In this document: positions 22,608 through 55,665 of the stretch, piece by piece
Layout: each line of letters starts with the position of its first letter
Position numbering within the stretch: position 1 is the stretch's first letter
Source of the DNA: a virus
Direction: 5' to 3' (one strand)
DNA length: 64,000 bases
IMG/VR virus record: IMGVR_UViG_3300032323_003671
Coordinates: 1-64,000 of that record
Position numbers and translations under genes: made by a program
Notes under the pieces: generated by a model
What the model was told of the DNA's origin: nothing
The model's database searches: none
What the model saw: the letters and a program-made list of their open reading frames with translations, nothing else

Positions 22608-22610
22608 TAA

Positions 22611-27032: not shown

Positions 27033-27059
27033 ATAATAACTTTGTTAAAATCTTTTAAA

Positions 27060-27524: not shown

Positions 27525-27541
27525 AATCAAAAGTTCTTATC

Positions 27542-30073: not shown

Positions 30074-30082
30074 AAGCAAATT

Positions 30083-37421: not shown

Positions 37422-38174
37422 ATGAACGCAACAGAAAAAGAATTGCATCGCTTTTTAGGGGTAGCTGAAAAAATGTCTGGATACGATGGTATGGACTATG
37501 AAGGCGACCTTTCGTCTTTTGACGATATGGATTTCTTTGATGGTGGAGAAGGTATTAACGACCCGATGTCTTTCGCTGATGGTGGAGCATCAACCGTTAA
37601 CGTTTCTAACCCATACGTTATCCAATATGTTAACTCAACACCAGGTACTCTTACCGCTGTGTTGTTCGGTTACAACAACTTCTTTAATGATCCAACAGGT
37701 CAGTTCGGCAACCCAGTGGGTATCACCGTAACCAACTTGCAAGGTTCATCTTATGCTGCCTTGATTGGTCAGACTTCAAACAAAGCATTCCAAATTGGAA
37801 AATGGCGTTTTCAGTCTGCTTCAGCTGGTCAGTTGAGCCAAACACTTACTGTATCACATTTCGATGCGAACGGTAACCAATACTCAACTCCGTTGAACTT
37901 ATCAATCATGCGTGATGCTTACCAGTTCCAGTCAGATATCTTGGATATCACCAAGGTAATCACAGTGGACGGTAACACTCAAATCACGTTCCCATTGTTA
38001 GCGTTGACTACATTGGTAATCTCTATGTTCCCAGTAAGCGTTGTTAGTACTAAAGCAGTACTTAACGGTGGTATAGCTCTTAACAAAGCAGTTGCTCCAC
38101 GTCTTTCTGGTAAAAACGTAGCACCAGTGATTATCAACACTAATCAAAGAGTTGGTGGCGTAACCAAAGCGTAG
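37422..38174 (+). CDS. candidate major capsid protein (beta-rich, possibly single jelly-roll) with acidic N-terminal propeptide
   Basis: High-expression codon bias (TTC/AAC/ATC/GGT/CGT), own promoter and terminator, near the packaging ATPase, two paralogs; fold not verified. Confidence 0.6.
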   Translation: MNATEKELHRFLGVAEKMSGYDGMDYEGDLSSFDDMDFFDGGEGINDPMSFADGGASTVNVSNPYVIQYVNSTPGTLTAVLFGYNNFFNDPTGQFGNPVGITVTNLQGSSYAALIGQTSNKAFQIGKWRFQSASAGQLSQTLTVSHFDANGNQYSTPLNLSIMRDAYQFQSDILDITKVITVDGNTQITFPLLALTTLVISMFPVSVVSTKAVLNGGIALNKAVAPRLSGKNVAPVIINTNQRVGGVTKA

Positions 38175-38198
38175 ATAAAAAACCGATCGCTATAAAAG

Positions 38199-38234
38199 AA
38201 AGGCAGAGTCGTATAACGTCTTTGCCTTTTTTTT
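38199..38234 (+). terminator. intrinsic terminator after the capsid gene
   Basis: AAAGGCAGAG...CTTTGCCTTT plus T tract. Confidence 0.8.
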
Positions 38235-38249
38235 CTTAAAATCATTAGT

Positions 38250-38750
38250 ATGAGAAGAAATCCAGAACGTACAAATCAACTTCAACAGCGAGTAACTTTA
38301 CTTGGTACTATTGCCAATGGTTCTACAGCAAAAGCTAGAAACCTATTGAAAAAATACAAGATGCCAGATGCAGTTAATCATGAAGATTTAGAATATAAGC
38401 TAACTCAGTTATATCATCAGCAAGGTGATAAGATTGAGCTTGAAAAAGATTTGGCAATGATTCATCCTCACAAAGATTTTATCTTGAAATATTCTCAAAT
38501 TAAAAAAGAAGAGCCAACAGATATGGAAGCACCTTTGGAAAAAACAAAGCAAGCCATTACAGAAACTAGTTCTTGTGCTTGTGGTTGTGGATCAATGGGA
38601 TTTGATGGAGTAAAATCGAATGCATCAGGTTATTCAAATGCTGCTGGTGATGCCTCAGTAGCAAGCCCAATGGGTACAAATACAGGCATGATAGTTATCG
38701 GAGTTCTTGGGATGGTTACAGTCCTTGCATTAACTCTAAATAGACAATAA
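38250..38750 (+). CDS. putative virion membrane protein (C-terminal TM, CACGC, SNAxG motifs)
   Basis: KSNASGYSNAAG; hydrophobic tail. Confidence 0.7.
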   Translation: MRRNPERTNQLQQRVTLLGTIANGSTAKARNLLKKYKMPDAVNHEDLEYKLTQLYHQQGDKIELEKDLAMIHPHKDFILKYSQIKKEEPTDMEAPLEKTKQAITETSSCACGCGSMGFDGVKSNASGYSNAAGDASVASPMGTNTGMIVIGVLGMVTVLALTLNRQ

Positions 38751-39208
38751 TGGACGTAGTTTGCCTTGATAAGACACCAATTCTGATTCATAACACAGAG
38801 CATAAAAACTTTGTTGAAACAGATAAGTCAGTTCCGAAAGGAACAAAAATGACAGGTCAATTTATGAATGTTATTGGCAAAAGAAAAGGAAAAGAATTTA
38901 CATATCGCCTATTCAAAGATGAAGATGGCGTAATTGTTTACCAAAATAAAGTAAAACCGATGGAAGTAACATTGAACGCAACAGGAGATGATGAAACAAG
39001 AGTTATCACATTCCCAAATGTACAAGACAATCTAAAAACGCATGCTATTGTTTCAGCAGGTGCAGCAGTAATTGCTTTTGCTGTGGCAAAACGCATGGGC
39101 AAAGCCAACAAAACAGCATTTTGGGCAGCGGCAGGTTCTGCAGTTGTAGGTTATGTAGCTGTAAGTATGATTGCAAAAAACCAAAGAATTAAATACCAAA
39201 AAATTTAG
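38750..39208 (+). CDS. putative virion membrane protein (two C-terminal TMs)
   Basis: TLNATG followed by an Ala-rich hairpin. Confidence 0.7.
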   Translation: MDVVCLDKTPILIHNTEHKNFVETDKSVPKGTKMTGQFMNVIGKRKGKEFTYRLFKDEDGVIVYQNKVKPMEVTLNATGDDETRVITFPNVQDNLKTHAIVSAGAAVIAFAVAKRMGKANKTAFWAAAGSAVVGYVAVSMIAKNQRIKYQKI

Positions 39209-39210
39209 TC

Positions 39211-40458
39211 ATGGAAGAAATTCAAAACTATAACCAGGTTGTCGTAAATCTTGATTCTGAAGGTGGTATTAGTGTGAACACACCTACAACTACTTTCGAG
39301 GAGGCGTTTATGGGTGAAGAATTTTCTGAAGCTCAGGGTAAAAGAAGAGCAAAGAAACAATCTCGCAAAATCCAAAAAACTACTGATAAGCGTGCAAGAA
39401 AAACTGCAAAACGTGGCAAAAAGTCTGATCGTCAAGAAGAAAGACTTGGCAGACGTGCTACTCGTAAGTCTTTAAAACAAGACATTCGTGATGAGCAAGC
39501 GGAACGCAGACAAACACGTAGGTCAAGAAGACCATCTGCAGTTGATCAAATCGTTTCAGCAAGGGAAAAAATGCGCCCAGAAGAAGAATACGTTGAAGAA
39601 ACATTCCAAGAAGGTTTCAGAGATGAAGAATATGATAACAAATATTATCCTTCTGATGAGCAAGAAGAACAAGAATACAATGATTCTGAAGAATTAGATC
39701 AAGATTACCAAGATGATCAAGATTATCAAGATGAATCAGAGTATGAAGAAGACGAAGCTGATTATGGTGATGATTCTGAATCCGAAGGTATGGATGAAGA
39801 AATTATCTATGACGAAGAGAATAATTTCACAGGAGAAATGAGTGGTAAAAAACCAGTTCCCAAAGAAATTATGGATTGTTGTATGAAAATCGAATGGAAC
39901 GATGAACTAATTGCTCGCTTGAAAGATGCAAAGCAAAAAAATAGTTTGTCTGATGTTTCAACGATGAGAATTCAAGATGTCATTGATGAGAAACAATCTC
40001 GCATGAATGAATTAAAGAGTTCACTTGATGATTATGCTAAACAATCTCCTGAGAATGCTGCAATTGCGAAAGAAGCTAGAATGAAAGCTCGTAAAGAACG
40101 CATGAAAATTTGTCCTTATCCAATTCGCAAAAGACTTCGTGAACGTGGAATGAGTGATCAACAAATAAATGAGTGGTGGACAAAAACAGGTCAACAAAAA
40201 ATTGAGCAAAAAATGTCCAACGCTGCTGGTATGCCAAGCGTAAGTACTCGTGAAGAATCTACAAGAATTGCAGATTTTGAAGAGCCAGTTTTGGACTATG
40301 ATCAACCAAAAACACAAGTAGTTGATATTGATGAGAATGGAGAAGTAAAATCAAACATGACAGGTGAAAATAAAGACTTTTGGAAGTCTGTACTCATTGG
40401 TTCATTAGTCGGTTTTGCAGCTATTTATGCCATTAACAAATACAAATTGTTGAAATAA
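39211..40458 (+). CDS. putative virion protein with basic and acidic tracts and C-terminal TM
   Basis: FSEAQG plus R/K tract, D/E tract, SNAAG, SNMTG, TM; related to 54434. Confidence 0.75.
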   Translation: MEEIQNYNQVVVNLDSEGGISVNTPTTTFEEAFMGEEFSEAQGKRRAKKQSRKIQKTTDKRARKTAKRGKKSDRQEERLGRRATRKSLKQDIRDEQAERRQTRRSRRPSAVDQIVSAREKMRPEEEYVEETFQEGFRDEEYDNKYYPSDEQEEQEYNDSEELDQDYQDDQDYQDESEYEEDEADYGDDSESEGMDEEIIYDEENNFTGEMSGKKPVPKEIMDCCMKIEWNDELIARLKDAKQKNSLSDVSTMRIQDVIDEKQSRMNELKSSLDDYAKQSPENAAIAKEARMKARKERMKICPYPIRKRLRERGMSDQQINEWWTKTGQQKIEQKMSNAAGMPSVSTREESTRIADFEEPVLDYDQPKTQVVDIDENGEVKSNMTGENKDFWKSVLIGSLVGFAAIYAINKYKLLK

Positions 40459-40730
40459 TGACTATCTATCAAACACTTTACAATTCTGATAACAAGGAAG
40501 CTGAATATCAGAAAAGAGGTAAAACCTGGTACAAAAGAAAGAAAGGTTCAAGTGAGAATTGGTATAAAGTGGATTCTAAATATTTTTCCAATTTGAACTC
40601 TAAATTTAAAGATGCACCATTTCTTTACAACTATACTACTACTGCAAAAGTAGGAGCGGCAGCGTTATTGGTTTTAGCTGGTTACATCACTTATAAGAAG
40701 TTTTATGGACTACAAAAGATATCAAAATAA
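40458..40730 (+). CDS. small membrane protein
   Basis: C-terminal TM. Confidence 0.7.
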   Translation: MTIYQTLYNSDNKEAEYQKRGKTWYKRKKGSSENWYKVDSKYFSNLNSKFKDAPFLYNYTTTAKVGAAALLVLAGYITYKKFYGLQKISK

Positions 40731-41316
40731 GCATCGTAAAATGATGAATAAACTTGGTCAGATTATCGTTACTGATAAATCAGACTTTGTTTCTATGCTT
40801 GATGCATCAAATACTCCTTACGCAAGTCAGGATGATTCTGATTTAATCAAGGCATTCATTATTGATATTCCAGAAAATGATCAGTTGAAAGTTTTGACTT
40901 CATACATGCTTGAAGACAAACTTTCGGCAACTCCATCAGTAGATAATGAAGCAGTTTATGAAAACTACGAAACTATTTACAATTATTGGGATTTTGATGT
41001 TACTGAAGATTACATGAAATCAAATGCTGTAGGTGCTATTGCAGGTGCAGTAAGTGCAGGTGCAAACTTGACAAATACTGCATTACAAGGCCGACAACAG
41101 CGTAAATATGGTGCTACAATGGCAGCACAAAAGCAAGCTGAATCAAAAACAGAGCTTTTAAAAGGATTAATCGCTCAGAAACAAGCGGAGGCGGATAAAA
41201 CTAAATCCATTGAAGAGAATAAATCCAAGACTAAAAGAAATCTGATTATTGCAGGATCTATTGTCGCAGGATTGACAATTGTTGGCGTGGCTATTTACTT
41301 TATAAGAAGAAAATGA
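40705..41316 (+). CDS. putative virion membrane protein
   Basis: KSNAVGAIAGAV, coiled coil, C-terminal TM ending RRK. Confidence 0.7.
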   Translation: MDYKRYQNKHRKMMNKLGQIIVTDKSDFVSMLDASNTPYASQDDSDLIKAFIIDIPENDQLKVLTSYMLEDKLSATPSVDNEAVYENYETIYNYWDFDVTEDYMKSNAVGAIAGAVSAGANLTNTALQGRQQRKYGATMAAQKQAESKTELLKGLIAQKQAEADKTKSIEENKSKTKRNLIIAGSIVAGLTIVGVAIYFIRRK

Positions 41317-41420
41317 GAAAGATTTTATCCATAATCGCTTTAGGTGGTGTCCTTTATGGTATTTATAAAGGATATGAAAGAGCCAAGCGAACTCAGCAAA
41401 ACGTAAAATTGCAATCATGA
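41313..41420 (+). CDS. 35-aa membrane peptide
   Basis: MRKILSIIALGGVLYGIYKG..., ATGA-coupled at both ends. Confidence 0.6.
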   Translation: MRKILSIIALGGVLYGIYKGYERAKRTQQNVKLQS

Positions 41421-41731
41421 AACTCAGTAAAAAACATTATATGATTGGTGGTGGATTGCTACTCGCAAGTTTGGCTGCATATTACTATTTTGGTTCGGCA
41501 ACAGTAAATCAATTTTACGAATTCGAAGTAGCTTCTAATCAATCAGGCCAAGGCATTTTCTATAGCGTAGATATGCGTAAATATGAGAAAGCTAGAAATG
41601 AGTTTTCAAGGAACTTAACTCGTTCAGAAGCCAGAGAATTGATTAACTTAGTAAAACAAAAAAAATATAACCAACGATATGAAACCCTAATTAAAAAATG
41701 GGGATTGACATCGGTTAAATCTGAAAAATGA
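41417..41731 (+). CDS. membrane protein (N-terminal TM)
   Basis: IGGGLLLASLAAYYYF. Confidence 0.7.
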   Translation: MKLSKKHYMIGGGLLLASLAAYYYFGSATVNQFYEFEVASNQSGQGIFYSVDMRKYEKARNEFSRNLTRSEARELINLVKQKKYNQRYETLIKKWGLTSVKSEK

Positions 41732-42225
41732 AAAAGTCATATATCATAACAAAAGACGTAAAATCTCCAGTTGTTGTAAGTAGCCAAGTCGCTCACAAAC
41801 CAGCACAAGTAAGATTTCAGACATTTCGCAGAGGACAAATTGTTCAAGGTGAATTAAAACATGCAGACAATAAGCCTGCATTTGTTTTGGTCGGACGTAT
41901 GTGTGTCATTCCAGTAAATTGCGTAAAAGAATTGCAAGGAAAAGAAATTACATCAAATTTCAATGATCAAGATGGCCAAAGCCAAGCACCTGCTCAAAAG
42001 AAAACAATTCAAGTAGAGAATCCAAAAATCAAATACATGGATGCCCTTTTGATTGGTGGTGTGGTTGGATATGCAGCAGTGCATGTAGCAATTCAGAAAG
42101 GTTATATTCAAAGTGAAGATCCCAAAGCAAAAATTTATGGTGCTTTAGGTGGCGCAGTGCTAGGCATGTACCTAGTATATAGAAATGTTAGTAGTCAAAA
42201 ACCAAAAACAACTCCAAAACAATGA
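41728..42225 (+). CDS. putative virion membrane protein (two C-terminal TMs)
   Basis: Architecture like 38750. Confidence 0.7.
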   Translation: MKKSYIITKDVKSPVVVSSQVAHKPAQVRFQTFRRGQIVQGELKHADNKPAFVLVGRMCVIPVNCVKELQGKEITSNFNDQDGQSQAPAQKKTIQVENPKIKYMDALLIGGVVGYAAVHVAIQKGYIQSEDPKAKIYGALGGAVLGMYLVYRNVSSQKPKTTPKQ

Positions 42226-42587
42226 TTAGTGTAGAAACAGCTCGTCCAGTATATTCAGCTTTTGGTGGTAAGGATCTTACTCCAGAACAAAAGAAAGAAC
42301 GTCAAAAAAAACGTATCGAAAAAGCAAAACAAATCTATCAAACTGCAAAAGAGACAGGTAGCTTAACAGCACTTGAAAATATTGCAATGAGAGCAGGTGC
42401 GCCATTAGCTCCCACAACTGATCCAAACTCAGGTGGTGGTGCAGGTGTTGGCACAAATGGTGATCCAAAAGGAAAAGGATGGGCAGACCTATCTACTCCT
42501 TATAAAGTAGGTATCATTGGTGGCAGCCTTTTAGTTGTAGGTGTAGCTGTTTGGTATTTTGGATTTAGAAACAAAGCAAAGAAGTAA
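42222..42587 (+). CDS. putative virion membrane protein, paralog of 54982
   Basis: MISVETARPVYSAFG vs MIEVNTARPVYSNAIG; basic tract; C-terminal TM. Confidence 0.75.
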   Translation: MISVETARPVYSAFGGKDLTPEQKKERQKKRIEKAKQIYQTAKETGSLTALENIAMRAGAPLAPTTDPNSGGGAGVGTNGDPKGKGWADLSTPYKVGIIGGSLLVVGVAVWYFGFRNKAKK

Positions 42588-43363
42588 TGGAACAAACTTG
42601 GGAAACGGATAAAAGATCGCTTTCCTTGAATGTTTCAATTAAATGTCAAGGCAAATGCAAATTTCGTGTAGTTGCCACAGATTTTAATGTAAACACCAAG
42701 TATGCTGATCGTACAATTGAAGTAGATGGTTTTCGAACAATCTATTTGTCTTTTGTAACATCTCCAGAGAAAGTGAGAATCATTGTAACTCCAAAAGGAG
42801 ATACAAACAACTATTTGGTGGATATCAAAGAGAAACCACTAAAGACATATCAGATTTATCTTGACGAACAAGCGAAGAAATTTGTAAAGTTTGCACAAGA
42901 ATTTTCTAGTGTATGTGGATACTCTAAAGCAACACCACAAGGCCGATTTTTCAGAACTAAGGACAAAGAGTTCTCAATTCGTTTTTATCCTTTCATTTCC
43001 CAAAATGGAAAAGTAAGCACCTCGCCTGCTAGAATTGGCCACAATACTGGTATTATTGACGTATCTAAACTTCATTTTGATAGATATACAATACCAATGA
43101 GAATGATTATTCTTTTACACGAATTTTCTCATAAGTATCGTAATCCTAAGATCGATCTTGAAATATCAAATGAGTTTGGGGCAGATTTAAACGCATTATA
43201 CATATATTTGGGATTAGGTTACTCCAAGGTGGATGCAATCTTTGTTTTTGCTAATGTATTTTTGAAAGCTCAGACCGATCAGAATATAATGCGCATGCGT
43301 AAAATCATGGATTACATTCAGAAATTCGAAAATGGAGAAATCGCCAAACCATTGACAAATTAA
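42587..43363 (+). CDS. zinc metalloprotease (gluzincin-like), candidate maturation protease
   Basis: ILLHEFSH followed by NEFGAD (HExxH...ExxAD). Confidence 0.7.
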   Translation: MEQTWETDKRSLSLNVSIKCQGKCKFRVVATDFNVNTKYADRTIEVDGFRTIYLSFVTSPEKVRIIVTPKGDTNNYLVDIKEKPLKTYQIYLDEQAKKFVKFAQEFSSVCGYSKATPQGRFFRTKDKEFSIRFYPFISQNGKVSTSPARIGHNTGIIDVSKLHFDRYTIPMRMIILLHEFSHKYRNPKIDLEISNEFGADLNALYIYLGLGYSKVDAIFVFANVFLKAQTDQNIMRMRKIMDYIQKFENGEIAKPLTN

Positions 43364-43364
43364 T

Positions 43365-44309
43365 ATGAATATCTGGGAAGAAGATATCAATGAATGGGAT
43401 GGATCATCTTACGATGATTTGTTCGAAAATAATTCTCAAAACTTAGATGATTTTGAGAATGAACCTGATATTATGGATATCGAGGATATCGATTTTAGTG
43501 GCATTAATGGAAAATCAACAAAAGAAAAACTTCGCAAAATTTCCAGAAAGACTGTTTCAGCTCGTATAGTTCCCAAAAAAAAAAGACTGAGTAGTGATAA
43601 GTCAATTTCAAGAAAAATAGTTGCGAAGCGAAATGTTGAATATGTTTTTAGTAAAAACAAAGGCCGACAAACCACCACTGAGATAAAACTCCCTGATAAT
43701 CGTGAGGTTCTTATTAAAGGTGTAGATGAGTTTATTCTATCCCAAGGTAGTGATCAAGTAAAGAATATAGGTTATTACAAAGGCGAGAAACTTCGTGAGC
43801 TTGTCCTAATCATAAATAATACTACTCCAAACGACATTGACATTGAATTTTTCAATCTTTCAACTCCTTTGGATTACATGTATGCAACTGCCAATAACTT
43901 AAACAATCTGATTCAAGTAGCTGGTGATAACAAGGTTAGTTACTCCGACATGTTGTTTAACTTATTAGCAAATCCAACAATTTTGCCAAACGCAAAATTT
44001 AGTTTATCTGGGCCTTTCAAAGATGCTCAGTATGCTCAACCAATGATTTTCAAGAATAAAAATATTGCAGGTTTTGAAAAAGTACATCCAATTCAAAACT
44101 CCTTGAATATCGATATAGATCAGAATCAAAATGATATTGTTTATTGGGATATAGAACAGAGCTTAGGACGATTATTTTGTCCTGATGGTATGGACGTGAT
44201 GCAATATAAAGTTCTTGCAGGCATGTCCGTTATTTTTGGCTTCTACTATAAGCAAATCAGTTTGAAAAAAGTATTTATCCCAGAACTTAGAAATAAAGGT
44301 ATCCTATGA
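43365..44309 (+). CDS. second capsid-family protein with acidic and basic N-terminal extension
   Basis: C-half INNTT...SYSDML...QP...DIDQNQNDI...DG..V.Y.VLA...V aligns with 37422. Confidence 0.6.
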   Translation: MNIWEEDINEWDGSSYDDLFENNSQNLDDFENEPDIMDIEDIDFSGINGKSTKEKLRKISRKTVSARIVPKKKRLSSDKSISRKIVAKRNVEYVFSKNKGRQTTTEIKLPDNREVLIKGVDEFILSQGSDQVKNIGYYKGEKLRELVLIINNTTPNDIDIEFFNLSTPLDYMYATANNLNNLIQVAGDNKVSYSDMLFNLLANPTILPNAKFSLSGPFKDAQYAQPMIFKNKNIAGFEKVHPIQNSLNIDIDQNQNDIVYWDIEQSLGRLFCPDGMDVMQYKVLAGMSVIFGFYYKQISLKKVFIPELRNKGIL

Positions 44310-46543: not shown

Positions 46544-46553
46544 AATATAAAAT

Positions 46554-47063
46554 ATGGCAGCATCATCCGCAGCAAGCGCAGTATATAGTGGTCTTGATCC
46601 AAGATTGAAATTTGGTTTACAAATTGGCGCAGTAATAGTAGTAGGAGTAGTAGTATATCAATTGGTGAAAAAATCAAATCAGTTTTTTGATGATCAAGCT
46701 AACAGAGACGAAAACCAAAGTACAGCTAATGAACTTGAACAACTAAACAAGAATCCATCTACACGCCAAAAGATTTCTAATTCTCAGGCGCAAGCCTATG
46801 CAAATAGTATCTATGGATCGATGCAAGGTATTGGTACAGATGAGCAAGCTATCAAAGACATTTTCTACAACATTAAAAATGATGCAGACTTTCTTGCCAT
46901 CAAAAAATATTTTGGCACAAAAACAATTTGGTCAGGAACTCCAGTTTTCGTAGCTGATTTCAGAGGAACTTTAGTGCCATGTTTAAGAAATGAACTAAGT
47001 GCATACTGGGTCAATGCAATCAACAAAATACTTCGTGATAAGAAAATCAAGTATCGTGTATAA
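46554..47063 (+). CDS. membrane-anchored annexin-repeat-like protein
   Basis: ANSIYGSMQGIGTDEQAIKDIF...I...FG...L..ELS matches the annexin GxGTDE motif; N-terminal TM. Confidence 0.6.
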   Translation: MAASSAASAVYSGLDPRLKFGLQIGAVIVVGVVVYQLVKKSNQFFDDQANRDENQSTANELEQLNKNPSTRQKISNSQAQAYANSIYGSMQGIGTDEQAIKDIFYNIKNDADFLAIKKYFGTKTIWSGTPVFVADFRGTLVPCLRNELSAYWVNAINKILRDKKIKYRV

Positions 47064-47111
47064 AAAATAAGTATTTTTATACCAGATATTTTGATCCATC
47101 GCCTAATTTAG

Positions 47112-47143
47112 AGTGCATTTTTATCATGAAAATGCACTTTTTT
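47112..47143 (+). terminator. intrinsic terminator
   Basis: AGTGCATTTT...AAAATGCACT plus T tract. Confidence 0.75.
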
Positions 47144-47159
47144 ATTTATATCAATTTTG

Positions 47160-47278
47160 TTAGTGGTTAATTTCGAACAATTTAATCTTTCATGAATTGA
47201 ATTGAAGGCCATTCGTATTATTTATATTTGAAGATTAAATCTATTGATTTACTATTTATTTATCAAAAATCGAAAAAA
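47160..47278 (+). promoter_or_regulatory. late promoter module, copy 2
   Basis: TTAGTGGTTAATTTCGAACAATTTAAT...TTCGTATT...TATATTTGAAGA...CGAAAAAAATG. Confidence 0.75.
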
Positions 47279-47494
47279 ATGAAATTAATTCAAGATTCAA
47301 CAGCGAAAATTAAAGCAAATCCTATCTCTTCTGTAGTAGGTGGTGTAGCAGGTTTTTACGTAACTCGTAAATATATCTCTACAAAATGGTGGGCTTTAAG
47401 TCTTGGTGCAGTAGTTGGTTTAGTTGGTGGTGCAATGACAGGAAGTGCTATTGCAGCAAAATCAACAACTCCAAAAGCAGCAGACGTAAAATAA
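47279..47494 (+). CDS. glycine-zipper small membrane protein
   Basis: Likely start ATG 47279; two GxxxG-rich TMs; own promoter and downstream hairpin (47518-47574). Confidence 0.75.
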   Translation: MKLIQDSTAKIKANPISSVVGGVAGFYVTRKYISTKWWALSLGAVVGLVGGAMTGSAIAAKSTTPKAADVK

Positions 47495-47595
47495 GAAAAA
47501 CGTCTTTCTTAGATCTTTAAGGGCAAAGAATCCAATATGTCAATGTATAGTGGTTAATAGCACCTTTGCCCTTATTTCTTATTTAATTTCTGTTT

Positions 47596-50124: not shown

Positions 50125-50135
50125 AACATTGTATA

Positions 50136-50600
50136 ATGAAACTAAGTAATAATTTTTGGTTAATTGAATTCACTAGAAGTGATTTAGCTAAACGCCTTGG
50201 CATTAGTAATCAACCTACCAAAGCGCATTTAGAAAATATCAAATTACTTTGTGAAAAGGTTTTAGAACCGATTCGAGAACACTTTGATACTCCTATTTAT
50301 ATTAGTTCGGGATATAGATCGATAGAACTAAATAAGAAAACTCCTGGTGCATCTACTACTTCTCAACATTCAAGTGGAGAGGCAGCAGATATCGATATGG
50401 ATGGTAGCATCATTTCAAATGCGGATGTCTTTAATTACATAAAAGAAAATCTAGAGTTTGATCAACTTATCTGGGAATTTGGTACAGATACAAATCCTGA
50501 TTGGGTTCATGTATCCTTTGAATCCTCAGGTAAACAACGTAAACAAATTCTTAAAGCGGTTAAATCAGGCGGAAAGAAATTTTATAGAAAGTTTAAATAA
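50136..50600 (+). CDS. M15A peptidase (endolysin)
   Basis: SSGYRS..LN...SQHSSGEAADI...DQLIWE...WVHVS; likely start ATG 50136. Confidence 0.9.
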   Translation: MKLSNNFWLIEFTRSDLAKRLGISNQPTKAHLENIKLLCEKVLEPIREHFDTPIYISSGYRSIELNKKTPGASTTSQHSSGEAADIDMDGSIISNADVFNYIKENLEFDQLIWEFGTDTNPDWVHVSFESSGKQRKQILKAVKSGGKKFYRKFK

Positions 50601-50630
50601 AATACTACTTTTATGTTCAAATAATAAAAA

Positions 50631-50963
50631 ATGGCAAACGAAACTCAAACTTGGAACACTATTCACATCTTTGGTTATGGTGAAACTCAAATCATCGGCA
50701 AAGATTTAAATAAAAAAGTACCTACATCTGTTTTGACTACAGTTCAAGCGGTTGTGGATAATGTATATTCTTTCAAACCAGAAGGAAACACAGCGACAGA
50801 AGAATATCATGCTGTAAATATCTTTAACACTATGTTTGCTGATTGGCAAACAAAACAACAAGGCGTTCAGGGTTGGAGAGTTCAATATGCTGATCTTGAT
50901 AGTGCGGCAATTGAAGCACTTGCAGCAGAAATCGTTGCATACGTAGCACCAGTTACAGAGTAA
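50631..50963 (+). CDS. hypothetical protein
   Basis: 110-aa ORF. Confidence 0.7.
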   Translation: MANETQTWNTIHIFGYGETQIIGKDLNKKVPTSVLTTVQAVVDNVYSFKPEGNTATEEYHAVNIFNTMFADWQTKQQGVQGWRVQYADLDSAAIEALAAEIVAYVAPVTE

Positions 50964-50988
50964 TAAACTACACATCAAATAAATAAGT

Positions 50989-51933
50989 ATGAAAAACATC
51001 ATTTTCAAAATTGATGGTGGGATTGGTAAATCCATCATGGCAACTGCAGTTTGTGAGGCAATTAAGAAACAATATCCAAACGATAAATTAATTGTTATCA
51101 CAGCCTATCCAGACGTATTTCTTTGCAATCCAAATGTAGATAAGTGTTATACACATAACAACTTATTCTACTTTTATCAGGATTTTGTAGACAATAAGTC
51201 TATTCGTGCATTCTTGCATGATCCTTATTTAGAGACATCTTTCATTAAAAGAGAGTGTCATTTAATTGAAACATGGTGTTCAATGTTTTCTATTAAATAC
51301 AATGGAGAACAACCAAAATTATATTTGACTGATAGAGAGGTTAATTTCTATGCAAATCAATTTGCATCTGACAAGCCAATTTTCTTGATTCAAACAAATG
51401 GGGGTGGTGCAGAACAAGGAATTAAATATTCTTGGTCTAGAGACATTCCTCAACAAGCTGCACAACAAATTGTCAATCATTATGCAAGTAATGGTTTCAA
51501 TGTAGTGCATATTCGTAGAGAAGACCAATTAGCATTACAGAATACCACTCCAGTATCTGCAGATTTTCGTGCAATTGCATCTTTGATAAAATTGTCAAGT
51601 GTTCGTCTATTCATGGATAGTTTTGCTCAACACGCAGCAGCAGCACTTGAATTACCAAGTACTGTTCTTTGGATTGCAAATACTCCAGAACAATTTGGAT
51701 ACAATATCCATAGCAATATCATTGCGAACAAAGAAACTGCAACTCCAGAATTGAAAAATTCAGTATTTTCTAGATACAATATTGCAGGTGGCCTTTTAGA
51801 ATTCCCATACAACTCTGAATCAGAAATTTTCGACTTAGAAAAAGTTGTAAAGTCTATCGATGATTTTATCAATCCAGTAGAAACTGAAATTGAAGAAGTA
51901 CAATTACCGAAGAAAAAATTAAATTCTAAATAA
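50989..51933 (+). CDS. GT9-like glycosyltransferase
   Basis: GGIG..IMATAV...IKKQYP...F..NPNVD...DSFAQHAAAAL..PS.VLW. Confidence 0.8.
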   Translation: MKNIIFKIDGGIGKSIMATAVCEAIKKQYPNDKLIVITAYPDVFLCNPNVDKCYTHNNLFYFYQDFVDNKSIRAFLHDPYLETSFIKRECHLIETWCSMFSIKYNGEQPKLYLTDREVNFYANQFASDKPIFLIQTNGGGAEQGIKYSWSRDIPQQAAQQIVNHYASNGFNVVHIRREDQLALQNTTPVSADFRAIASLIKLSSVRLFMDSFAQHAAAALELPSTVLWIANTPEQFGYNIHSNIIANKETATPELKNSVFSRYNIAGGLLEFPYNSESEIFDLEKVVKSIDDFINPVETEIEEVQLPKKKLNSK

Positions 51934-51939
51934 TTCGTT

Positions 51940-52764
51940 ATGCCGAAAAAGATTTTTTTTCAGTCTAGCATGCCTAGATCGGGTTCTACTATTTTACAAA
52001 ATATCGTAGGTCAAAATCCTAACTTTTATGTTACGCCAACATCAGGTGTTTTGGAATTAGTTTTTGGTGCTAGAGCCAACTATACAACTTCTCCAGAATT
52101 CAAAGCGCAAGATTCTGAATTGATGGCCAAAGCATTTAAGAATTTTTGTGTTCAAGGAATAAATGGTTTTTACGATGGTATTACTGACAAACCTTATGTT
52201 TTAGACAAAAGCAGAGGTTGGGGAGTTTATCGACCTTTTTTAGATGAATTCTATCCTGATCCTAAAATCATTTGCATGGTTAGGGATTTAAGAAGTGTTT
52301 TGGCTTCTTATGAAAAAATATATCGAAAGTCTCAACTGAAACATGATCCTATTCGTGATGATGCCTCAGCTAGGGGTACTACAGTACACAAACGTATTGA
52401 TGAATGGGTAAATCCTCAGAATACGATTGGTCGTGCAGTAGAGCGTATTTTTGAAATGATTCGACTTGGATATGATGATAAGATTCTATTTGTAAAATTT
52501 GAGGATCTAGCACTTTATCCAGACTTGGAGATGAAACGTATCTATAACTACTTAGGTTTAGATTATTTCGAACATGATTTTGATAATATTCAACAAATTA
52601 CCAAAGAAGACGATGCAGTTTACGGACTGACATCCGATTTACATACAATTAAGCCAAGATTAGAACCTTTGAAAAAGGATTTCAAAGAAATTCTTGGTAA
52701 AGATATTTGTGATTGGATTCAAAATAATTATTCCTGGTATCAAGAAAAATTCAATTATAGATAA
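51940..52764 (+). CDS. sulfotransferase
   Basis: PAPS-binding MPRSGST, DKSR.W, KIICMVRD...LAS, FEDL..P. Confidence 0.9.
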   Translation: MPKKIFFQSSMPRSGSTILQNIVGQNPNFYVTPTSGVLELVFGARANYTTSPEFKAQDSELMAKAFKNFCVQGINGFYDGITDKPYVLDKSRGWGVYRPFLDEFYPDPKIICMVRDLRSVLASYEKIYRKSQLKHDPIRDDASARGTTVHKRIDEWVNPQNTIGRAVERIFEMIRLGYDDKILFVKFEDLALYPDLEMKRIYNYLGLDYFEHDFDNIQQITKEDDAVYGLTSDLHTIKPRLEPLKKDFKEILGKDICDWIQNNYSWYQEKFNYR

Positions 52765-52798
52765 TTACTATCTTTGAAAGAATTAAATACTTAACACT

Positions 52799-53065
52799 AT
52801 GGGAGTTTCTCAAAACATTTGGACATATAAATTATCAGCAGGTACATTGAACATTGATTCAAACTATGGATTACTTGTAATTTCAATCATACTTGAATCT
52901 GGTACAGGTACAGTTACGGGGACTGCCCTTTTAAATGGTGTGGCATCAACTCCAATAGATCTTGCAGTAGGTGTTCCTTTGACTATTTCAACAGATGGAA
53001 ACACAATTCTTGGAGACGTAAGTATTACTACAACAGGTGTAGTTTCTATTGTCGGTAGGTCTTAG
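52799..53065 (+). CDS. small beta-rich structural protein, paralog of 57006
   Basis: QNIWTYKL...ID..YGL..IS...STP..L.VG...TTGV..I.G shared. Confidence 0.75.
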   Translation: MGVSQNIWTYKLSAGTLNIDSNYGLLVISIILESGTGTVTGTALLNGVASTPIDLAVGVPLTISTDGNTILGDVSITTTGVVSIVGRS

Positions 53066-53180
53066 TGGTTAATTTTGAACAATTTAATTTCTGAATATTT
53101 CAATTCAGATGCTTTCGTATTTTCTATATTTGAAGAATAAATGTATTGAATTGTTTATTAATTAATTAAAACCGAAAAAA
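53062..53180 (+). promoter_or_regulatory. late promoter module, copy 3
   Basis: TTAGTGGTTAATTTTGAACAATTTAAT...TTCGTATT...TATATTTGAAGA...CGAAAAAAATG. Confidence 0.75.
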
Positions 53181-53558
53181 ATGCCAACAGTACAAGGAAC
53201 AAACTATCTTCGAGTAGCTACCACAGCAGTATTAGCAGATAGCACATACGATCTTACTTTGAAAGATAACAATGGTAACGTTTTCCCAAAAACAACCATT
53301 GAAATTAACACAACATTGGGTGATGGAGAGTTCAATCTTCCTTCAATTGCCTCTTTAGGTGCAGCAGCACAAAATTGTCAGGTAGTTATCGTAGTGGATA
53401 ACTCTACAAATGATGTAATTGTTGATCCTGCATTAACCGATAAAATCGGTGGTTTAGCAGCAGGCGCACCATACACTATTGCGGCAGGTGCAGCAGGTCA
53501 AAATATAGTTCTATATCCAGTGGATGGAACTACATGGGGATTTGTTTACACAGCATAA
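53181..53558 (+). CDS. small structural protein related to the N-terminal domain of spike 44306
   Basis: TIEINTTLGDGEFNLPSI vs TIICDTTLGPVQIELLEI; own promoter and hairpin terminator (53579-53608). Confidence 0.65.
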   Translation: MPTVQGTNYLRVATTAVLADSTYDLTLKDNNGNVFPKTTIEINTTLGDGEFNLPSIASLGAAAQNCQVVIVVDNSTNDVIVDPALTDKIGGLAAGAPYTIAAGAAGQNIVLYPVDGTTWGFVYTA

Positions 53559-53622
53559 TCTAAACATTCTAGAAAGCAAAGGTAGGTAGCAGAAATGTTA
53601 CCTACCTTATAATTCATTTTAC

Positions 53623-54432
53623 ATGAAGAACAAGAACATTCTTACTATTGCAGGTATTTTGATTGCTGGTTCGGCAATTTATTTTGGTATTAAATGGTAT
53701 CAAAAAAATCAAGAAGAAAAAAATCAATTACCTAAGCCAGATCCAGTTGTTACTCCTTCTGGTAATGGTACGGATTTAGCTCCGAGCGATGTGGAAAATC
53801 CATTCTTAAATATTGACGAAGTAAAAGCGTTTCAAGATTGGATGGATGCAAAGCACCCTAATTGGGTAAATGGTAAGAATTTAAATAAAGGTGCAGGATA
53901 TGGTAATTTTGGCCCAGCTACAAAGGCAGCCTTTACTACTTATGGTGCTGAATACCTTAAATCATTACAACCAGCACCTGCTCAATTGTCTGAGAATCAG
54001 AAAAAAGATATTCAGACTATCATGGCTCATGGAACTGGAGATAAATCAAAAGAATCATATTTAAAAGCAACAATTGCAAAGTATCCTAACTACACTGCTA
54101 ATTGGGCTAATTCAATTCGTAGAAGAATAGAAACTAATGGCCAACAAGGAACAACTTTCCTTTTTGCTAATCAGATTTATGAATCTTTTTCTGGAAACAG
54201 AATCTATCGTGGCACTTTGCTAGGTAAAAAGCCAGAAGTAAAGGCTAACGCTAAATTGCGTAGAGAATCTAAATGGAATACAAGCACTCAACCTGTAGGT
54301 GTAGGTGCAGACTTAGGTAAAGTCAAAGGTTATTTTTACAATAAAAATGACAAGGCTTTATTTGTCTATGTTCCAGACCAAAATAAATCCCTAACAAATA
54401 AATGGATTTGGGTAGGATCAATAAAATTTTAA
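53623..54432 (+). CDS. membrane-anchored protein with peptidoglycan-binding-like domain
   Basis: N-terminal TM; VKAFQDWM...GNFGPATKAA. Confidence 0.6.
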   Translation: MKNKNILTIAGILIAGSAIYFGIKWYQKNQEEKNQLPKPDPVVTPSGNGTDLAPSDVENPFLNIDEVKAFQDWMDAKHPNWVNGKNLNKGAGYGNFGPATKAAFTTYGAEYLKSLQPAPAQLSENQKKDIQTIMAHGTGDKSKESYLKATIAKYPNYTANWANSIRRRIETNGQQGTTFLFANQIYESFSGNRIYRGTLLGKKPEVKANAKLRRESKWNTSTQPVGVGADLGKVKGYFYNKNDKALFVYVPDQNKSLTNKWIWVGSIKF

Positions 54433-54433
54433 T

Positions 54434-54985
54434 ATGAGAGAGCAAGAAATTAGACCAGTTCGTTTTATGGTGGCCAATGGATTTTCTGAGTTACGTCCGC
54501 CAACAATTTATGGTGATGTATCTCCGATGTCCGCATTTGATGGAGAACCTATCAATGATACAGAATTCCCATTCACTGAGGAAATTATGCTTGAATTTTC
54601 AAATGCCGATGGTAAAGCTAGACGTGCTAAAAGACGTTCTGCTCGATCAGATAAAAAGCAAGGTAAGGCTAGTGCCAAAAAAGACCGCCAATCAGATAGA
54701 TCAGCTGCTAGAAAACAGCGTGCTGATATTCGTGAAAGAAGAATGTCTTTGAAAGAAAAAGAACAAGCAACACAAGCGGAAGTTGCTAAGAAAATCGGTG
54801 AACAATCTCCTGAAGAAATTGCTTTGATGAATCAAATTGCTAGTCAAGGTACTACCAAAAGTGAAACCGCACCAAAAGTAGGCATGAGTAAAGGTCTTAA
54901 AATTGGCCTTATTGCTGGATCCGTTGCTGTTTTGACAATTGTAGTCATTGCCATTGTTAAATCCCGTAAAAAATCTAAAAAATGA
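54434..54985 (+). CDS. basic putative virion membrane protein, related to 39211
   Basis: FSNADG plus R/K tract; C-terminal TM. Confidence 0.75.
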   Translation: MREQEIRPVRFMVANGFSELRPPTIYGDVSPMSAFDGEPINDTEFPFTEEIMLEFSNADGKARRAKRRSARSDKKQGKASAKKDRQSDRSAARKQRADIRERRMSLKEKEQATQAEVAKKIGEQSPEEIALMNQIASQGTTKSETAPKVGMSKGLKIGLIAGSVAVLTIVVIAIVKSRKKSKK

Positions 54986-55665
54986 TTGAAGTAAACACAG
55001 CTCGTCCAGTATATTCTAATGCTATAGGTGATAAATTAAAAAGATCACCAGAAAAAAAAGCCAAAACTCAGGAGAATAGAGCCGAACGTGCGGAAAAAAG
55101 AAGTGGTCGTAAGGCAAAAAGAAATGCCAAGAAACTTATCCGCATGGAAAATAAAGGCAAAAAGAAGTTTTTCTATCCTTTAACAAAGATTTTTGGCAAA
55201 AAGAAAAAGTACAAAGATGGATCAACAATTGAAGTTCCTGCCGAAAATACAGTTGTAGTTTCAACCAAAGATGGTAAAACAGCATCTTTGGATAAAACAG
55301 AGATTGCAAAAGCACTCAATATTCCTGAAAGCCAGGTTACGCCAGCAAAAGTTCAAGAAGTTGTTGTGAATGTACCACAAGCAAGTGCAGGCCCAGCAGC
55401 AAACGAAACAGGAACTCCAGTAGGTGAGCCAGTTCTTGCAATTCCAATAAAAGATGAAGATGTAATCATTACAGACGATGGTTCAGCGTATTTATCTGAT
55501 GATACTCAATCTCAGGATGAAAAATTGAAAAATGTTGCCGATGATGATAAAGAAGCACAGAAAAAAATTAAAATCGGAAAAATTTTATTGATTTCTGGTG
55601 TTGTAATCGTTGTTTTAGGTGCAGTCGTTTACTTTATGAATAAAGATTCAAAAGCTGAAAAATAA
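54982..55665 (+). CDS. basic putative virion membrane protein, paralog of 42222
   Basis: RPVYSNAIG plus basic tract; C-terminal TM. Confidence 0.75.
   Translation: MIEVNTARPVYSNAIGDKLKRSPEKKAKTQENRAERAEKRSGRKAKRNAKKLIRMENKGKKKFFYPLTKIFGKKKKYKDGSTIEVPAENTVVVSTKDGKTASLDKTEIAKALNIPESQVTPAKVQEVVVNVPQASAGPAANETGTPVGEPVLAIPIKDEDVIITDDGSAYLSDDTQSQDEKLKNVADDDKEAQKKIKIGKILLISGVVIVVLGAVVYFMNKDSKAEK

Follow-up and report, generated by a model that had tools for sequence, protein, structure and literature searches.

Why do otherwise unrelated proteins of one virus share a short S-N-A-x-G peptide, and could a metalloprotease encoded among them be the enzyme that reads it? The window, by which we mean the whole 64,000-nucleotide stretch analysed, holds 96 ORFs (19,740 aa) of a 73,262-bp record with 125 ORFs (23,022 aa) whose completeness is rated at 48%; the genome of one relative reaches up to 146 kb. 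The source is an uncultured, apparently tailless bacterial virus whose host probably belongs to the Bacteroidota. An internal membrane is suggested by 12 ORFs whose products have a hydrophobic C-terminal segment, together with the jelly-roll and FtsK/HerA-like gene set. The ATPase 34517 belongs to a family present in 53 of 78 related loci, with Pfam DUF87 (HerA) detected in 17 of 30 members (best E 7.8e-7); its PDB profile matches include HerA (E 0.01) and the STIV B204 packaging NTPase (E 0.056). Together with 37422 and 42587, it constitutes the conserved core. Our literature search found no paper on this shared-motif/zincin system. Feature coordinates are collected in Table 1.

Table 1. Coordinates of the proteins discussed and of their motif sites (nucleotide positions in the window)
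Feature	Length (aa)	Coordinates	Strand	Domains and sites
Polyvalent proteins (multi-domain) 19431, 22611, 27542, 30083		19431..30847	+	Pfam ART-PolyVal, LPD1, LPD11
P-loop ATPase, FtsK/HerA type	279	34517..35356	+	Likely packaging ATPase
Coat-like protein 1	250	37422..38174	+	N-terminal helix, disordered acidic leader, jelly-roll core from ~residue 61; MSGYDG 37473-37490; MSFADG 37566-37583
Tail-anchored protein	166	38250..38750	+	Tandem KSNASG + YSNAAG 38613-38648
Membrane protein	152	38750..39208	+	LNATG 38972-38986
Tail-anchored protein	415	39211..40458	+	Acidic leader, FSEAQG 39322-39339, then basic tract; GEMSG 39832-39846; MSNAAG 40213-40230; KSNMTG 40348-40365
Tail-anchored protein	203	40705..41316	+	KSNAVG 41017-41034, immediately upstream of Gly/Ala-rich hydrophobic stretch
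Tail-anchored basic protein	121	42222..42587	+	YSAFGG (residues 11-16) 42252-42269
Candidate maturation protease	258	42587..43363	+	HEFSH 43118-43132; EFGAD 43172-43186
Coat-like protein 2	314	43365..44309	+	Acidic 43-aa leader, FSGING 43494-43511, basic arm, jelly-roll core
Tail-anchored basic protein	183	54434..54985	+	MSAFDG 54527-54544; FSNADG 54596-54613
Tail-anchored basic protein	227	54982..55665	+	YSNAIG (residues 11-16) 55012-55029
Tail-anchored protein	120	55669..56031	+	QSNTMG 55936-55953 (candidate extra site)

A short signal in the late proteins

The original prediction held that the motif recurs in virion proteins, and every pentapeptide it listed is present in the ORF named. One register was corrected: since orthologues of 39211 read S-E-(I/A)-(S/T)-G, the matching peptide is GEMSG, three residues downstream of the NNFTG first proposed. 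Strict S-N-A-x-G has six matches in five proteins of the 96 window ORFs, all of them within the late block (38250-55665), and the expected enrichment is evident: 5000 within-protein shuffles over all 125 ORFs of the record averaged 0.556 matches and peaked at 4, none reaching six. When a preceding F/Y/M/K is required, the same six matches compare with a shuffle mean of 0.084. We read the complete signal as a hexapeptide, (F/Y/M/K)-S-(N, more rarely G/S/E/F/Y)-(A or another hydrophobic)-x-G, a short linear signal carried by at least 10 late proteins.

In an unbiased list of 4-of-5-residue patterns of the window (~640,000 patterns), SNA.G falls outside the top 15-25, which come from paralogue families and the repeat protein 47596. 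A case built on the window by itself would therefore fail multiple testing, and the weight lies in conservation among relatives. Searched for [FYWLIM].[NG][AFVM][DNESTG]G, 670 proteins of closer relatives yielded 115 matches where 33.2 were expected, and 1273 proteins of distant relatives yielded 227 where 54.7 were expected; such broader patterns were fixed post hoc from data already inspected, and counts across loci, which contain orthologues, lack independence. Enrichment of the strict S-N form is not universal among relatives: SN[AVIFMLC].G has zero matches in 10 of 61 loci. Ser and Gly are also spaced variably, as S-x-x-x-G here and as S-(F/Y)-x-G in the Rhodocytophaga relative. Among homologues the motif keeps its position while the flanking sequence drifts.

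Chance, composition or the common ancestry of a few N-termini could produce such a recurrence with no function of its own. The N-terminus of 54982 is paralogous to that of 42222 (both M-I-x-V-x-T-A-R-P-V-Y-S), 39211 and 54434 have E-F-S-x-A-x-G-K-(A)-R-R-A-K in common, and the modest rank of SNA.G in the unbiased list points the same way. We nevertheless find this explanation scarcely credible, given that no shuffle reached the observed count, that the carriers include otherwise unrelated proteins, and that the motif columns are near-invariant within leaders that cannot otherwise be aligned; the conservation data already contradict it.

Position of the motif in coat-like and membrane proteins

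Judging from profile comparison and modelling, 37422 and 43365 are paralogues, each a coat-like protein with a single jelly-roll: the core of 43365 matches 37422 with a probability of 91.7% (hhalign, E 7.8e-7, 147 columns), and 37422 gave weak matches to jelly-roll capsid proteins. An AlphaFold2 model of 37422 built with 42 sequences has a pLDDT above 90 at residues 61-210 and below 50 at 20-31 and 36-60, and places both motif sites in the low-confidence stretch between the N-terminal helix and the jelly-roll core. Conservation in homologues, which had been anticipated, is clear for both proteins. In the 37422 family, each of 49 distinct leaders contains at least one site, usually two; A52 is retained in 52 of 56 sequences and G54 in 49. 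In the 43365 family, D43, S45 and G49 are found in 20/20 sequences and F44 in 19/20, while adjacent columns vary, and of the 120 homologues retrieved from databases, 115 have (F/Y/W)-S-x-hydrophobic-x-G. Their leaders measure 41-74 aa with a net charge of −11 to −31, and the 40 residues after the motif carry +7 to +17.

Coat maturation in nodaviruses, tetraviruses and reoviruses proceeds by self-cleavage at asparagine. A protease-free break of the same kind (N|A) would suit the fact that no pair is more frequent at positions 3-4 than Asn-Ala, and that two motif carriers are jelly-roll coat proteins. We consider it very improbable here, since the asparagine is dispensable: of the 115 homologues of 43365 with the motif, 63 have N at position 3, 39 have S and 13 have G, D, A or another residue, and sites in the window also have G, A, E or F there. 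To our knowledge, asparagine self-cleavages need a folded context, and a linear motif within disordered sequence of a leader would not provide it.

Orthologous sites are also retained for 42222, 54982, 54434, 40705, 38250 and 38750. At the residues that YSAFGG occupies in 42222, its three orthologues have FSNATG, YSNAGG and FSNVTG; 16 distinct orthologues of 40705 usually read (F/Y)SN(A/V)GG, most with a second site, x-N-F-D-G, ~30 residues upstream; and those of 38750 read T-E-V-T-L-(G/N)-A-(D/T/N)-(G/S) where 38750 has its LNATG. For 39211, the corresponding sites in three related loci (L002-L004) are MSNAKG-KGRARRK, SE(I/A)(S/T)G and MSFATG/SNFSG. Several sites adjoin a membrane segment: the tandem of 38250 lies 11 residues upstream of its C-terminal one, with one or two copies kept in orthologues between a Cys-rich stretch and that segment, KSNMTG of 39211 lies four residues upstream, and the candidate site QSNTMG of 55669, outside the list first proposed, lies one residue upstream. 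Taken together, the alignments support a real motif under selection, which sits in variable or disordered leaders right before conserved mature parts.

The motif had been said to precede Arg/Lys-rich tracts, and the net charge of the following 40 residues agrees (+16 in 39211, +14 in 54434, +11 in 54982, +4 in 42222 and +15 in 43365); in 54434, KARRAKRR comes directly after FSNADG. The acidic leader said often to come before the motif is present in 39211 (−8), 54434 (−7) and 43365 (−17), while leaders of 54982 and 42222 have a net charge of 0. The proposal that the basic tracts condense DNA finds no support here. Four of the five proteins are tail-anchored, and a membrane assembled in the manner of PRD1 would turn their basic N-terminal parts to the coat and not to the DNA-filled lumen.

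A candidate protease and the polyvalent proteins

The HExxH...ExxAD gene noted within the block is indeed there. The model of 42587 (pLDDT 93.5) comprises an N-terminal beta-sandwich (residues 1-85) and a helical zincin domain with HEFSH at 178-182 and EFGAD at 196-200, in which H178, E179, H182, E196, G198, A199 and D200 are invariant in 22/22 aligned homologues. The family counts 634 proteins at E≤0.001. Residues 114-250 align with E. coli BepA (M48; 6sar_A) over 119 positions with an rmsd of 4.1 and a Z of 7.6, a value within the range that the tool labels common, and 3c37_B follows with a Z of 6.5. Foldseek returned no match to the model at E≤0.001, no Pfam, PHROG or NCBIfam model reached threshold, and Pfam Peptidase_M56 was detected in 4 of 22 family members (best E 0.0085). 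We thus describe 42587 as a conserved predicted zincin that weakly resembles M48 proteases. Among 62 loci fetched via the coat gene alone, 57 contain a homologue, and the remaining five end less than 2.3 kb past the coat gene; the catalytic signature is intact in all 57 sufficiently long loci.

Selection on the motif, its position at the leader/mature junction and the presence of a zincin in the module make adenovirus-like maturation cleavage the most economical reading, and we lean towards the motif being the cleavage site of 42587. The enzyme would be an active zinc metalloprotease that recognises and cuts the motif during particle maturation, stripping the acidic leaders of both coat-like proteins (~54 aa from 37422, ~49 aa from 43365) as well as the leaders that precede the basic tracts in tail-anchored 39211, 54434, 54982 and 42222. 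Loss of the leaders would free basic tracts that acidic leaders otherwise neutralise, and cuts at the pre-anchor sites of 38250, 39211 and 55669 would detach soluble parts from the membrane. We propose that the cut falls between the third and fourth residues of the motif (N|A); position 4 is always hydrophobic, matching the hydrophobic preference of the gluzincin S1′ pocket.

The motif could instead remain uncut and serve as a docking or targeting signal by which one common assembly partner (the coat lattice, a scaffold, a membrane patch, or the beta-sandwich of 42587 acting as a chaperone) draws unrelated proteins into the particle. Binding motifs are typically short, located in disordered regions and sometimes in tandem, as in KSNASG-YSNAAG of 38250 and KSNAEG-FSNAPG of the related locus L016, and 42587 does carry the additional N-terminal beta-sandwich. 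We hold this to be a serious yet unlikely alternative: it leaves unexplained the zincin signature preserved in 57/57 loci, the exact coincidence of the motif with the point where leader meets mature part in each coat protein, and its occurrence at the domain borders of polyvalent proteins. Targeting and cutting are moreover compatible with each other, and both occur in T4, whose capsid-targeting sequences double as targeting signals.

The polyvalent proteins, which are probably injected, bring in a related motif, K-(F/Y/M)-A-x-G-G, which lies at their domain borders. At such borders in three of them, (F/Y/M)-x-x-G-G occurs 9, 9 and 3 times against shuffle means of 0.53, 0.59 and 0.11, while 22611 has zero sites; F.DGG occurs 10 times against a shuffle mean of 0.186, and at least 10 occurrences were seen in 0/5000 shuffles. 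Sites at 754 and 848 flank Pfam DUF5824 (763-841), and those at 388 and 467 flank LPD11 (397-462). In polyvalent proteins of relatives, 17 sites were counted where 1.96 were expected, and 14 where the expectation was 1.46. The regular border motif is absent from two domain-sharing polyvalent proteins of tailed Bacteroides phages (0 vs 1.21 and 4 vs 2.14).

A second HExxH (HEWGH) is found in a zincin-like domain of 22611, whose residues 355-476 match NCBIfam CLCA_X at E 7.9e-21, a score under the curated cut-off. This domain, or a host protease, might cut the motif in place of 42587. Zincin-like domains have been proposed to process polyvalent proteins (Iyer et al. 2017, PMC5512222), and 22611 is itself free of the sites that its neighbours carry. 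Against this, it is the 42587 family that accompanies the motif-bearing coat gene as part of the conserved core, and the CLCA_X match stays below its cut-off; we judge another enzyme improbable. Under the favoured reading, the polyvalent sites would be cut either by 42587 or by the 22611 domain, and the proteins would thereby be split into domain-sized fragments.

Comparison with known systems

The adenovirus protease AVP cuts at (M/I/L)-x-G-G|x and (M/I/L)-x-G-x|G. Its sites lie in pIIIa, pVI, pVII, pVIII, pX/mu and pTP (PMC4246237). Both systems have a Gly-containing motif with an upstream hydrophobic residue, common to many unrelated precursors that include basic core proteins, in a jelly-roll-coated particle (here predicted) with the protease gene among late genes. 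The analogy with adenovirus and poxvirus processing that had been drawn is thus apt in function and fails as kinship, 42587 being a metalloprotease and theirs cysteine proteases. AVP belongs to a eukaryotic virus, recognises a different motif and cuts demonstrably, whereas the cleavage by a bacterial virus zincin is here predicted from sequence comparison.

In T4, the prohead protease gp21 cleaves (L/I)-x-E sites, internal proteins carry capsid-targeting sequences, and phiKZ-type head proteases are comparable. Short N-terminal leaders, targeting to the particle and subsequent removal at a common motif (here proposed) are shared; unlike our candidate, those enzymes belong to the serine proteases and come from tailed phages whose coats are HK97-type, and motif and enzyme class are unrelated.

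As in the polyvalent proteins of phages and conjugative elements, ART-PolyVal, LPD1 and LPD11 are present here, with a zincin-like domain in 22611. The portion of Iyer et al. 2017 (PMC5512222) available to us does not mention a regular (F/Y/M)-A-x-G-G border motif, with 0 occurrences of 'linker' or 'glycine'.

The gene set also recalls the Helvetiavirae. Viruses such as P23-77, SH1 and HHIV-2 build their coats from two major proteins of the single jelly-roll type, package DNA with an FtsK/HerA-type ATPase and contain an internal membrane, and we know of no maturation protease in this group. As in these viruses (reviewed in PMC8328091), two paralogous single jelly-roll proteins adjoin an FtsK/HerA-like ATPase and many small membrane proteins are encoded. 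Helvetiavirae coat proteins gave no sequence or strong fold match, the best Z being 6.1 for a PR772 chain; genomes are far larger here (a 73-kb record that is 48% complete), and the host group differs, being probably Bacteroidota.

Finally, among the M48/M56 zincins compared (E. coli BepA, HtpX, BlaR1 and Ste24/ZMPSTE24), 42587 shares HExxH with a downstream Glu and a C-terminal domain that aligns to BepA. It differs in being soluble and virus-encoded, in its N-terminal beta-sandwich and in an HExxH-to-Glu spacing of only 14 residues. The signal of the M48 protease ZMPSTE24 in prelamin A, R-S-Y-L-L-G (PMC4680568), offers a precedent for the proposed signal and itself fits S-(aromatic)-(hydrophobic)-x-G.

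The motif and its conservation

Every pentapeptide named in the original prediction, which described a recurrent S-N-A-x-G motif separating leaders from basic or membrane segments of virion proteins, was found in the window. The strict form SNAxG matches six times in 5 of the 96 window ORFs, all inside 38250-55665, and the proposed enrichment was borne out by 5000 within-protein shuffles of all 125 ORFs in the record (23,022 aa), which yielded a mean of 0.556 and a maximum of 4 matches. The residue preceding the Ser of the strict form is always K, M, F or Y; once it is included in the pattern, whole-record shuffles give a mean of 0.084 against the six observed. SNA.G was not near the top of an unbiased list of all 4-of-5 residue patterns in this genome. 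The window alone would therefore not carry the claim, whose weight, in terms of sequence, rests on conservation in relatives.

The anticipated conservation in homologues was indeed observed, since three relatives whose version of the coat-like, putative jelly-roll protein 37422 is 65-80% identical keep the motif at the same places. Related loci were gathered using the family of the candidate zincin maturation protease 42587 (61 viral and 17 genome loci). In the family of 43365, the other protein of this kind, D43, S45 and G49 are present in 20/20 sequences and F44 in 19/20, and position 47 is hydrophobic in 20/20, while the columns between and around them are variable. The pattern (F/Y/W)-S-x-hydrophobic-x-G was found in 115 of the best 120 of 425 homologues of 43365, the five misses being two proteins truncated at the N-terminus, one that reads F-T-S-I-D-G and two that read F-S-S-L-D-S. 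In these homologues, a leader of 41-74 aa with a net charge of -11 to -31 precedes the motif, and the next 40 residues carry +7 to +17. Likewise, among 62 loci gathered through the 37422 gene, at least one site, and usually two, occurs in 49 of 49 distinct leaders, reading M-S-G-(Y/F)-D-x and M-S-(Y/F)-A-(S/G)-G in close relatives, and F-x-N-A-D-G-F and F-(F/M)-x-A-(N/D)-G in distant ones (25-35% identity). The coat gene of two loci (L025 and L026) appeared to be leaderless; this reading was rejected, as ATG-only ORF calling had hidden a leader containing FFNADG, in frame upstream of the called start. Orthologous sites are also kept in the membrane or tail-anchored late proteins 42222, 54982, 54434, 40705 (two sites), 38250 and 38750. 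Several virion proteins hence share a short motif where precursor leader and mature part meet, as in a maturation protease system.

Over the 61 viral loci, SN[AVIFMLC].G was observed 173 times against 59.7 expected, with zero matches in 10 loci, so that the S-N form is not universal. With a broader pattern, closer relatives gave 115 matches (33.2 expected) and distant relatives 227 (54.7 expected); this pattern was chosen after the data had been seen, and its counts include orthologues and hence are not independent events. Taken together, the sequences indicate that the motif is a real, well-conserved signal, and an origin by chance or paralogy is scarcely credible. Self-cleavage at Asn is nearly as hard to sustain, given that this residue occupies only 63 of the 115 sites in the 43365 homologues. 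Two other readings were rejected. Many sites read N-A-S or N-A-T and resemble an N-glycosylation sequon (N-x-S/T), but 18 of 63 FSN sites and 39 of 39 FSS sites in the 43365 homologues lack it. A sortase- or exosortase-like sorting signal, consisting of a motif, a membrane segment and a basic tail, suits the late membrane proteins 38250 and 39211; it was discarded as a general explanation because sites near the N-terminus that precede basic tracts do not fit it.

The candidate protease and the predicted cut

The HExxH...ExxAD gene singled out by the original prediction proved to be a conserved one. Its product, 42587, is one of 634 family members, and none of the 120 that were listed has a precomputed Pfam domain. 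HEFSH lies at residues 178-182, and all 22 aligned homologues share H178, E179, H182, E196, G198, A199 and D200 without exception; the first three of these belong to the HExxH zinc-binding and catalytic motif of zincins (clan MA, gluzincins). The invariant E196, a candidate third zinc ligand, is at the start of helix 196-209 in a model (pLDDT 93.5) composed of a beta-sandwich (1-85) followed by a helical domain. VIA-align superimposed residues 114-250 on the M48 peptidase BepA of E. coli (6sar_A; Z 7.6, rmsd 4.1, 119 aligned), and 42587 on a putative zinc peptidase (3c37_B; Z 6.5, rmsd 5.3, 127 aligned), both in a score range that the tool calls common. Foldseek detected the sandwich alone and gave no match at E<=0.001, and a PDB sequence-profile search with the family returned nothing useful. 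No M48 or M56 family profile scored above its curated threshold, and there was no Pfam, PHROG or NCBIfam match at default limits; Peptidase_M56 was detected weakly in 4 of 22 family members (best E 0.0085). Because 42587 fails the M48/M56 profile test, it is filed here only as a zincin.

The protease family itself contains F-S-x-x-x-G (42587 residues 106-111, with F106 and G111 invariant), placed where the helix linking beta-sandwich and catalytic domain ends. This segment is helical in the model and fits the motif; it could be structural, or else a self-processing or pseudo-substrate site.

The protease and coat genes are strongly linked. A protease homologue is present in 57 of the 62 loci gathered through the coat gene alone, and the five loci without one end less than 2.3 kb past the coat gene, while the protease normally lies ~4-5 kb downstream. 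When the 78 related loci were searched by blastp, all 78 had the protease, 64 had the coat gene and 53 had the FtsK/HerA-like ATPase 34517. By both counts the protease gene is conserved within a morphogenetic module. These observations, together with the placement of the motif, suggest that it probably works as a cleavage site, and on balance we favor 42587 as the enzyme that would cut it. The sequence data show directly the motif and its conservation, where it sits relative to leaders and domains, the zincin signature and the linkage of the genes; enzyme activity, cleavage at the motif, the bond that is cut and what would follow from it are inferred. Cleavage by some other enzyme seems unlikely. 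The same conserved signal could instead be a docking element that stays uncut, which we regard as rather improbable though deserving of consideration.

If 42587 does cut at the motif, the scissile bond is predicted between motif positions 3 and 4, because position 4 is always hydrophobic, as preferred by the S1' pocket of gluzincins (thermolysin-like enzymes). In the R-S-Y-L-L-G sequence cut by ZMPSTE24, cleavage falls between Y and L. Recognition of this sequence by ZMPSTE24, an M48 enzyme, is described in PMC4680568.

The particle and its virus group

The window covers the first 64 kb of a 73,262-bp IMG/VR virus record. The record has a CheckV completeness of 48% and a G+C content of ~32%, and its genes at 19-59 kb are on the + strand nearly throughout.

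Coordinates of features in the window and in the remainder of the record
Feature	Position (strand)	Details
Replication/DNA-modification genes	left part of window	DnaB, two methylases, RusA
Four large polyvalent proteins	19.4-30.8 kb	ART-PolyVal, LPD1, LPD11 domains (Pfam)
Endolysin-like protein	30858-31565	PHROG endolysin families, E 3.8e-16; C-terminal membrane segment
Late-gene block, mostly without annotation	33-58 kb	M15 peptidase and holin-like gene at its end
Protein of Gly-rich repeats	47596-50124	842 aa; TI.GG 15 times
Sulfotransferase gene	51940-52764	
Adenylylsulfate-kinase-like gene	60098-60565 (-)	
Small protein with bacterial RNA polymerase alpha C-terminal domain	62551-63054 (-)	Pfam E 1.5e-16
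Y-V-H-x-L-Q-N paralogues	window 5388-5804; record 64690-65079, 68076-68504, 68532-69128 (- strand)	four small proteins sharing C-terminal Y-V-H-x-L-Q-N-(L/I)-(Y/W)-F; function unassigned

In the model of 37422, an N-terminal helix (3-18) is followed by a low-confidence stretch (20-60) containing both sites and by an eight-strand beta core with pLDDT >90. Fold searches were weak, with Z no higher than 6.1 and Foldseek E-values of roughly 1e-3 to 1e-4, but the lists were dominated by single jelly-roll capsid proteins, including those of PR772 (one chain, Z 6.1), phiCjT23 and FLiP, as well as the coats of picorna-like and satellite viruses. Comparison of the 43365 and 37422 family profiles with hhalign (probability 91.7%, E 7.8e-7, 147 columns) implies that the virus has two paralogous, probably jelly-roll proteins, the acidic leader of each ending in the motif. 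This pair recalls viruses with coats made of two single jelly-roll proteins. In the protein atlas, 43365 resembles Cressdnaviricota capsid clusters at 0.87 and the product of gene 33348 matches unnamed viral clusters, both of which are leads only; a PDB sequence-profile search with the 43365 family gave nothing useful. The P-loop ATPase 34517 adjoins the coat-like genes and has weak FtsK/HerA and STIV B204 likeness: DUF87 was detected in 17 of 30 family members (best E 7.8e-7), the window protein scoring 21.9 bits against a cut-off of 23.2, and the match to STIV B204 had an E of 0.056. At 30.8-56 kb, twelve ORFs have one hydrophobic segment each, at the C-terminus, and the motif is found in six of the twelve.

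No tailed-phage hallmark genes were found in the window, and Terminase_6N was absent from 5 of 5 large related contigs, all incomplete. A PHROGs search of the 150 longest of 186 ORFs from an incomplete 146-kb relative revealed no portal, HK97 coat, tube, sheath or tape measure; its sole terminase-like match (phrog_2666, E 4e-6) was weak and fell on the ATPase orthologue. The gene content thus points to a likely tailless, membrane-containing particle.

Several other genes of the virus deserve mention. The endolysin-like protein may be a virion-associated, membrane-anchored wall hydrolase, and the product of 47596, which has no family match in Pfam, PHROG or NCBIfam, is probably a fibre or spike. 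The sulfotransferase and adenylylsulfate-kinase-like genes hint at sulfation of a glycan or protein.

Most relatives come from Bacteroidota metagenome bins (9 of 17 genome-collection loci), with one in an Ignavibacteria bin and the others scattered. A tblastn search of 50,697 phage records for cultured relatives returned no match for 37422, 42587 or 34517, and full-text searches retrieved no paper on the virus group or the motif. Three relatives have records of 146,216 bp (G001, which contains three transposase genes), 169,658 bp (G002) and 102,495 bp (G003), all rated incomplete. Tailless bacterial viruses are not known to come near sizes of 100-170 kb, and our analysis flags an unstudied, apparently tailless lineage whose genomes would be far larger than theirs. 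A smaller related record (G009, 63,287 bp, locus L017) is classed in IMG/VR as having inverted terminal repeats, as would be expected if the genome were linear and its replication protein-primed. One cultured strain, Rhodocytophaga aerolata KACC 12507, has a distant copy of the module on a contig of 136,788 bp (L077). Its protease is 33% identical, the leader of its coat-like gene reads AFLNFSGEE, and S-F-L-G directly precedes basic tracts in two of its proteins. This copy adjoins chromosomal-type genes and may thus be a prophage or a remnant.

Polyvalent proteins and a possible scheme for particle maturation

A related motif marks domain borders in the polyvalent proteins. F-x-D-G-G occurs 10 times in 5 proteins (mean 0.186; 0 of 5000 shuffles reached 10), and (F/Y/M)-x-x-G-G is found 9, 9 and 3 times in the polyvalent proteins 19431, 27542 and 30083, against 0.53, 0.59 and 0.11 expected, as well as twice in the 37422 leader. 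These sites bracket Pfam domains: sites at 4 and 126 enclose DUF3140 (22-101), and DUF5824 (763-841) is likewise flanked by sites at 754 and 848 and LPD11 (397-462) by sites at 388 and 467. The polyvalent proteins of four relatives are organized likewise, with the consensus K-(F/Y/M)-(A/E/K)-x-G-G-x-(V/I/L) and with counts such as 17 sites over 1732 aa, where 1.96 were expected, and 14 over 1232 aa, where 1.46 were expected. Relatives of 27542 were not recovered by a pattern search of viral contigs and were found by searching related records. There was no such excess in polyvalent proteins of tailed Bacteroides phages sharing a domain (0 against 1.21 and 4 against 2.14, two controls only); Cellulophaga phage phi17:2 was discarded as a control because its LPD11 is a small stand-alone gene. 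The M-S-F-A-D-G-G site of 37422 fits both motifs, and its orthologues read M-S-(Y/F)-A-S-G, so that N, F and Y are interchangeable there. The remaining polyvalent protein, 22611, has no (F/Y/M)-x-x-G-G site and contains a second HExxH, HEWGH, inside a CLCA_X-like zincin match. Self-processing of polyvalent proteins by zincin-like domains was proposed by Iyer et al. 2017 (PMC5512222), and the available portion of that article makes no mention of a Gly-Gly border motif.

One further element of the original prediction, that cleavage frees basic tracts to condense DNA, found no support. Four of the five basic-tract carriers (39211, 54434, 54982, 42222 and 43365) are tail-anchored, and in a PRD1-like assembly route the N-terminal parts of such membrane proteins would face the coat. 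The basic carriers may therefore bridge coat and membrane instead.

Combining these elements, we tentatively envisage that, throughout a large group of uncultured Bacteroidota viruses with big genomes, jelly-roll coats and no tails, the whole particle is matured by one virus-encoded zincin, a reading that we hold with less than even confidence. Both coat paralogues and the membrane-anchored basic proteins would lose their acidic leaders to this zincin, which would also free other proteins from their membrane anchors. It would cut the packaged polyvalent proteins at their K-(F/Y/M)-A-x-G-G borders as well, yielding some twenty effectors, each about the size of a domain. If true, this would explain in concrete terms how polyvalent proteins are processed into separate effectors, as has long been proposed. 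It would also provide a simple sequence rule predicting the mature ends of ~10 virion proteins in hundreds of uncultured viruses, and an enzyme-substrate pair directly testable in vitro.

Proteolytic maturation is well documented in tailed phages and in eukaryotic jelly-roll viruses. To our knowledge, no such process has been reported in membrane-containing jelly-roll viruses of bacteria or archaea, and the system proposed here would be the first in which a prokaryotic jelly-roll virus uses a maturation protease. Phage T4 uses a leader-plus-cleavage scheme that works alike, although the enzyme class, motif and virus group differ here. The same three differences separate our system from adenovirus maturation, which also works alike (PMC4246237). 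No papain-like or Ulp1-like cysteine protease family appeared in Pfam scans of 75 window ORFs. The resemblance to adenain-type maturation is functional only, and the zincin system, if confirmed, would have arrived convergently at the adenovirus scheme with an enzyme of another class.
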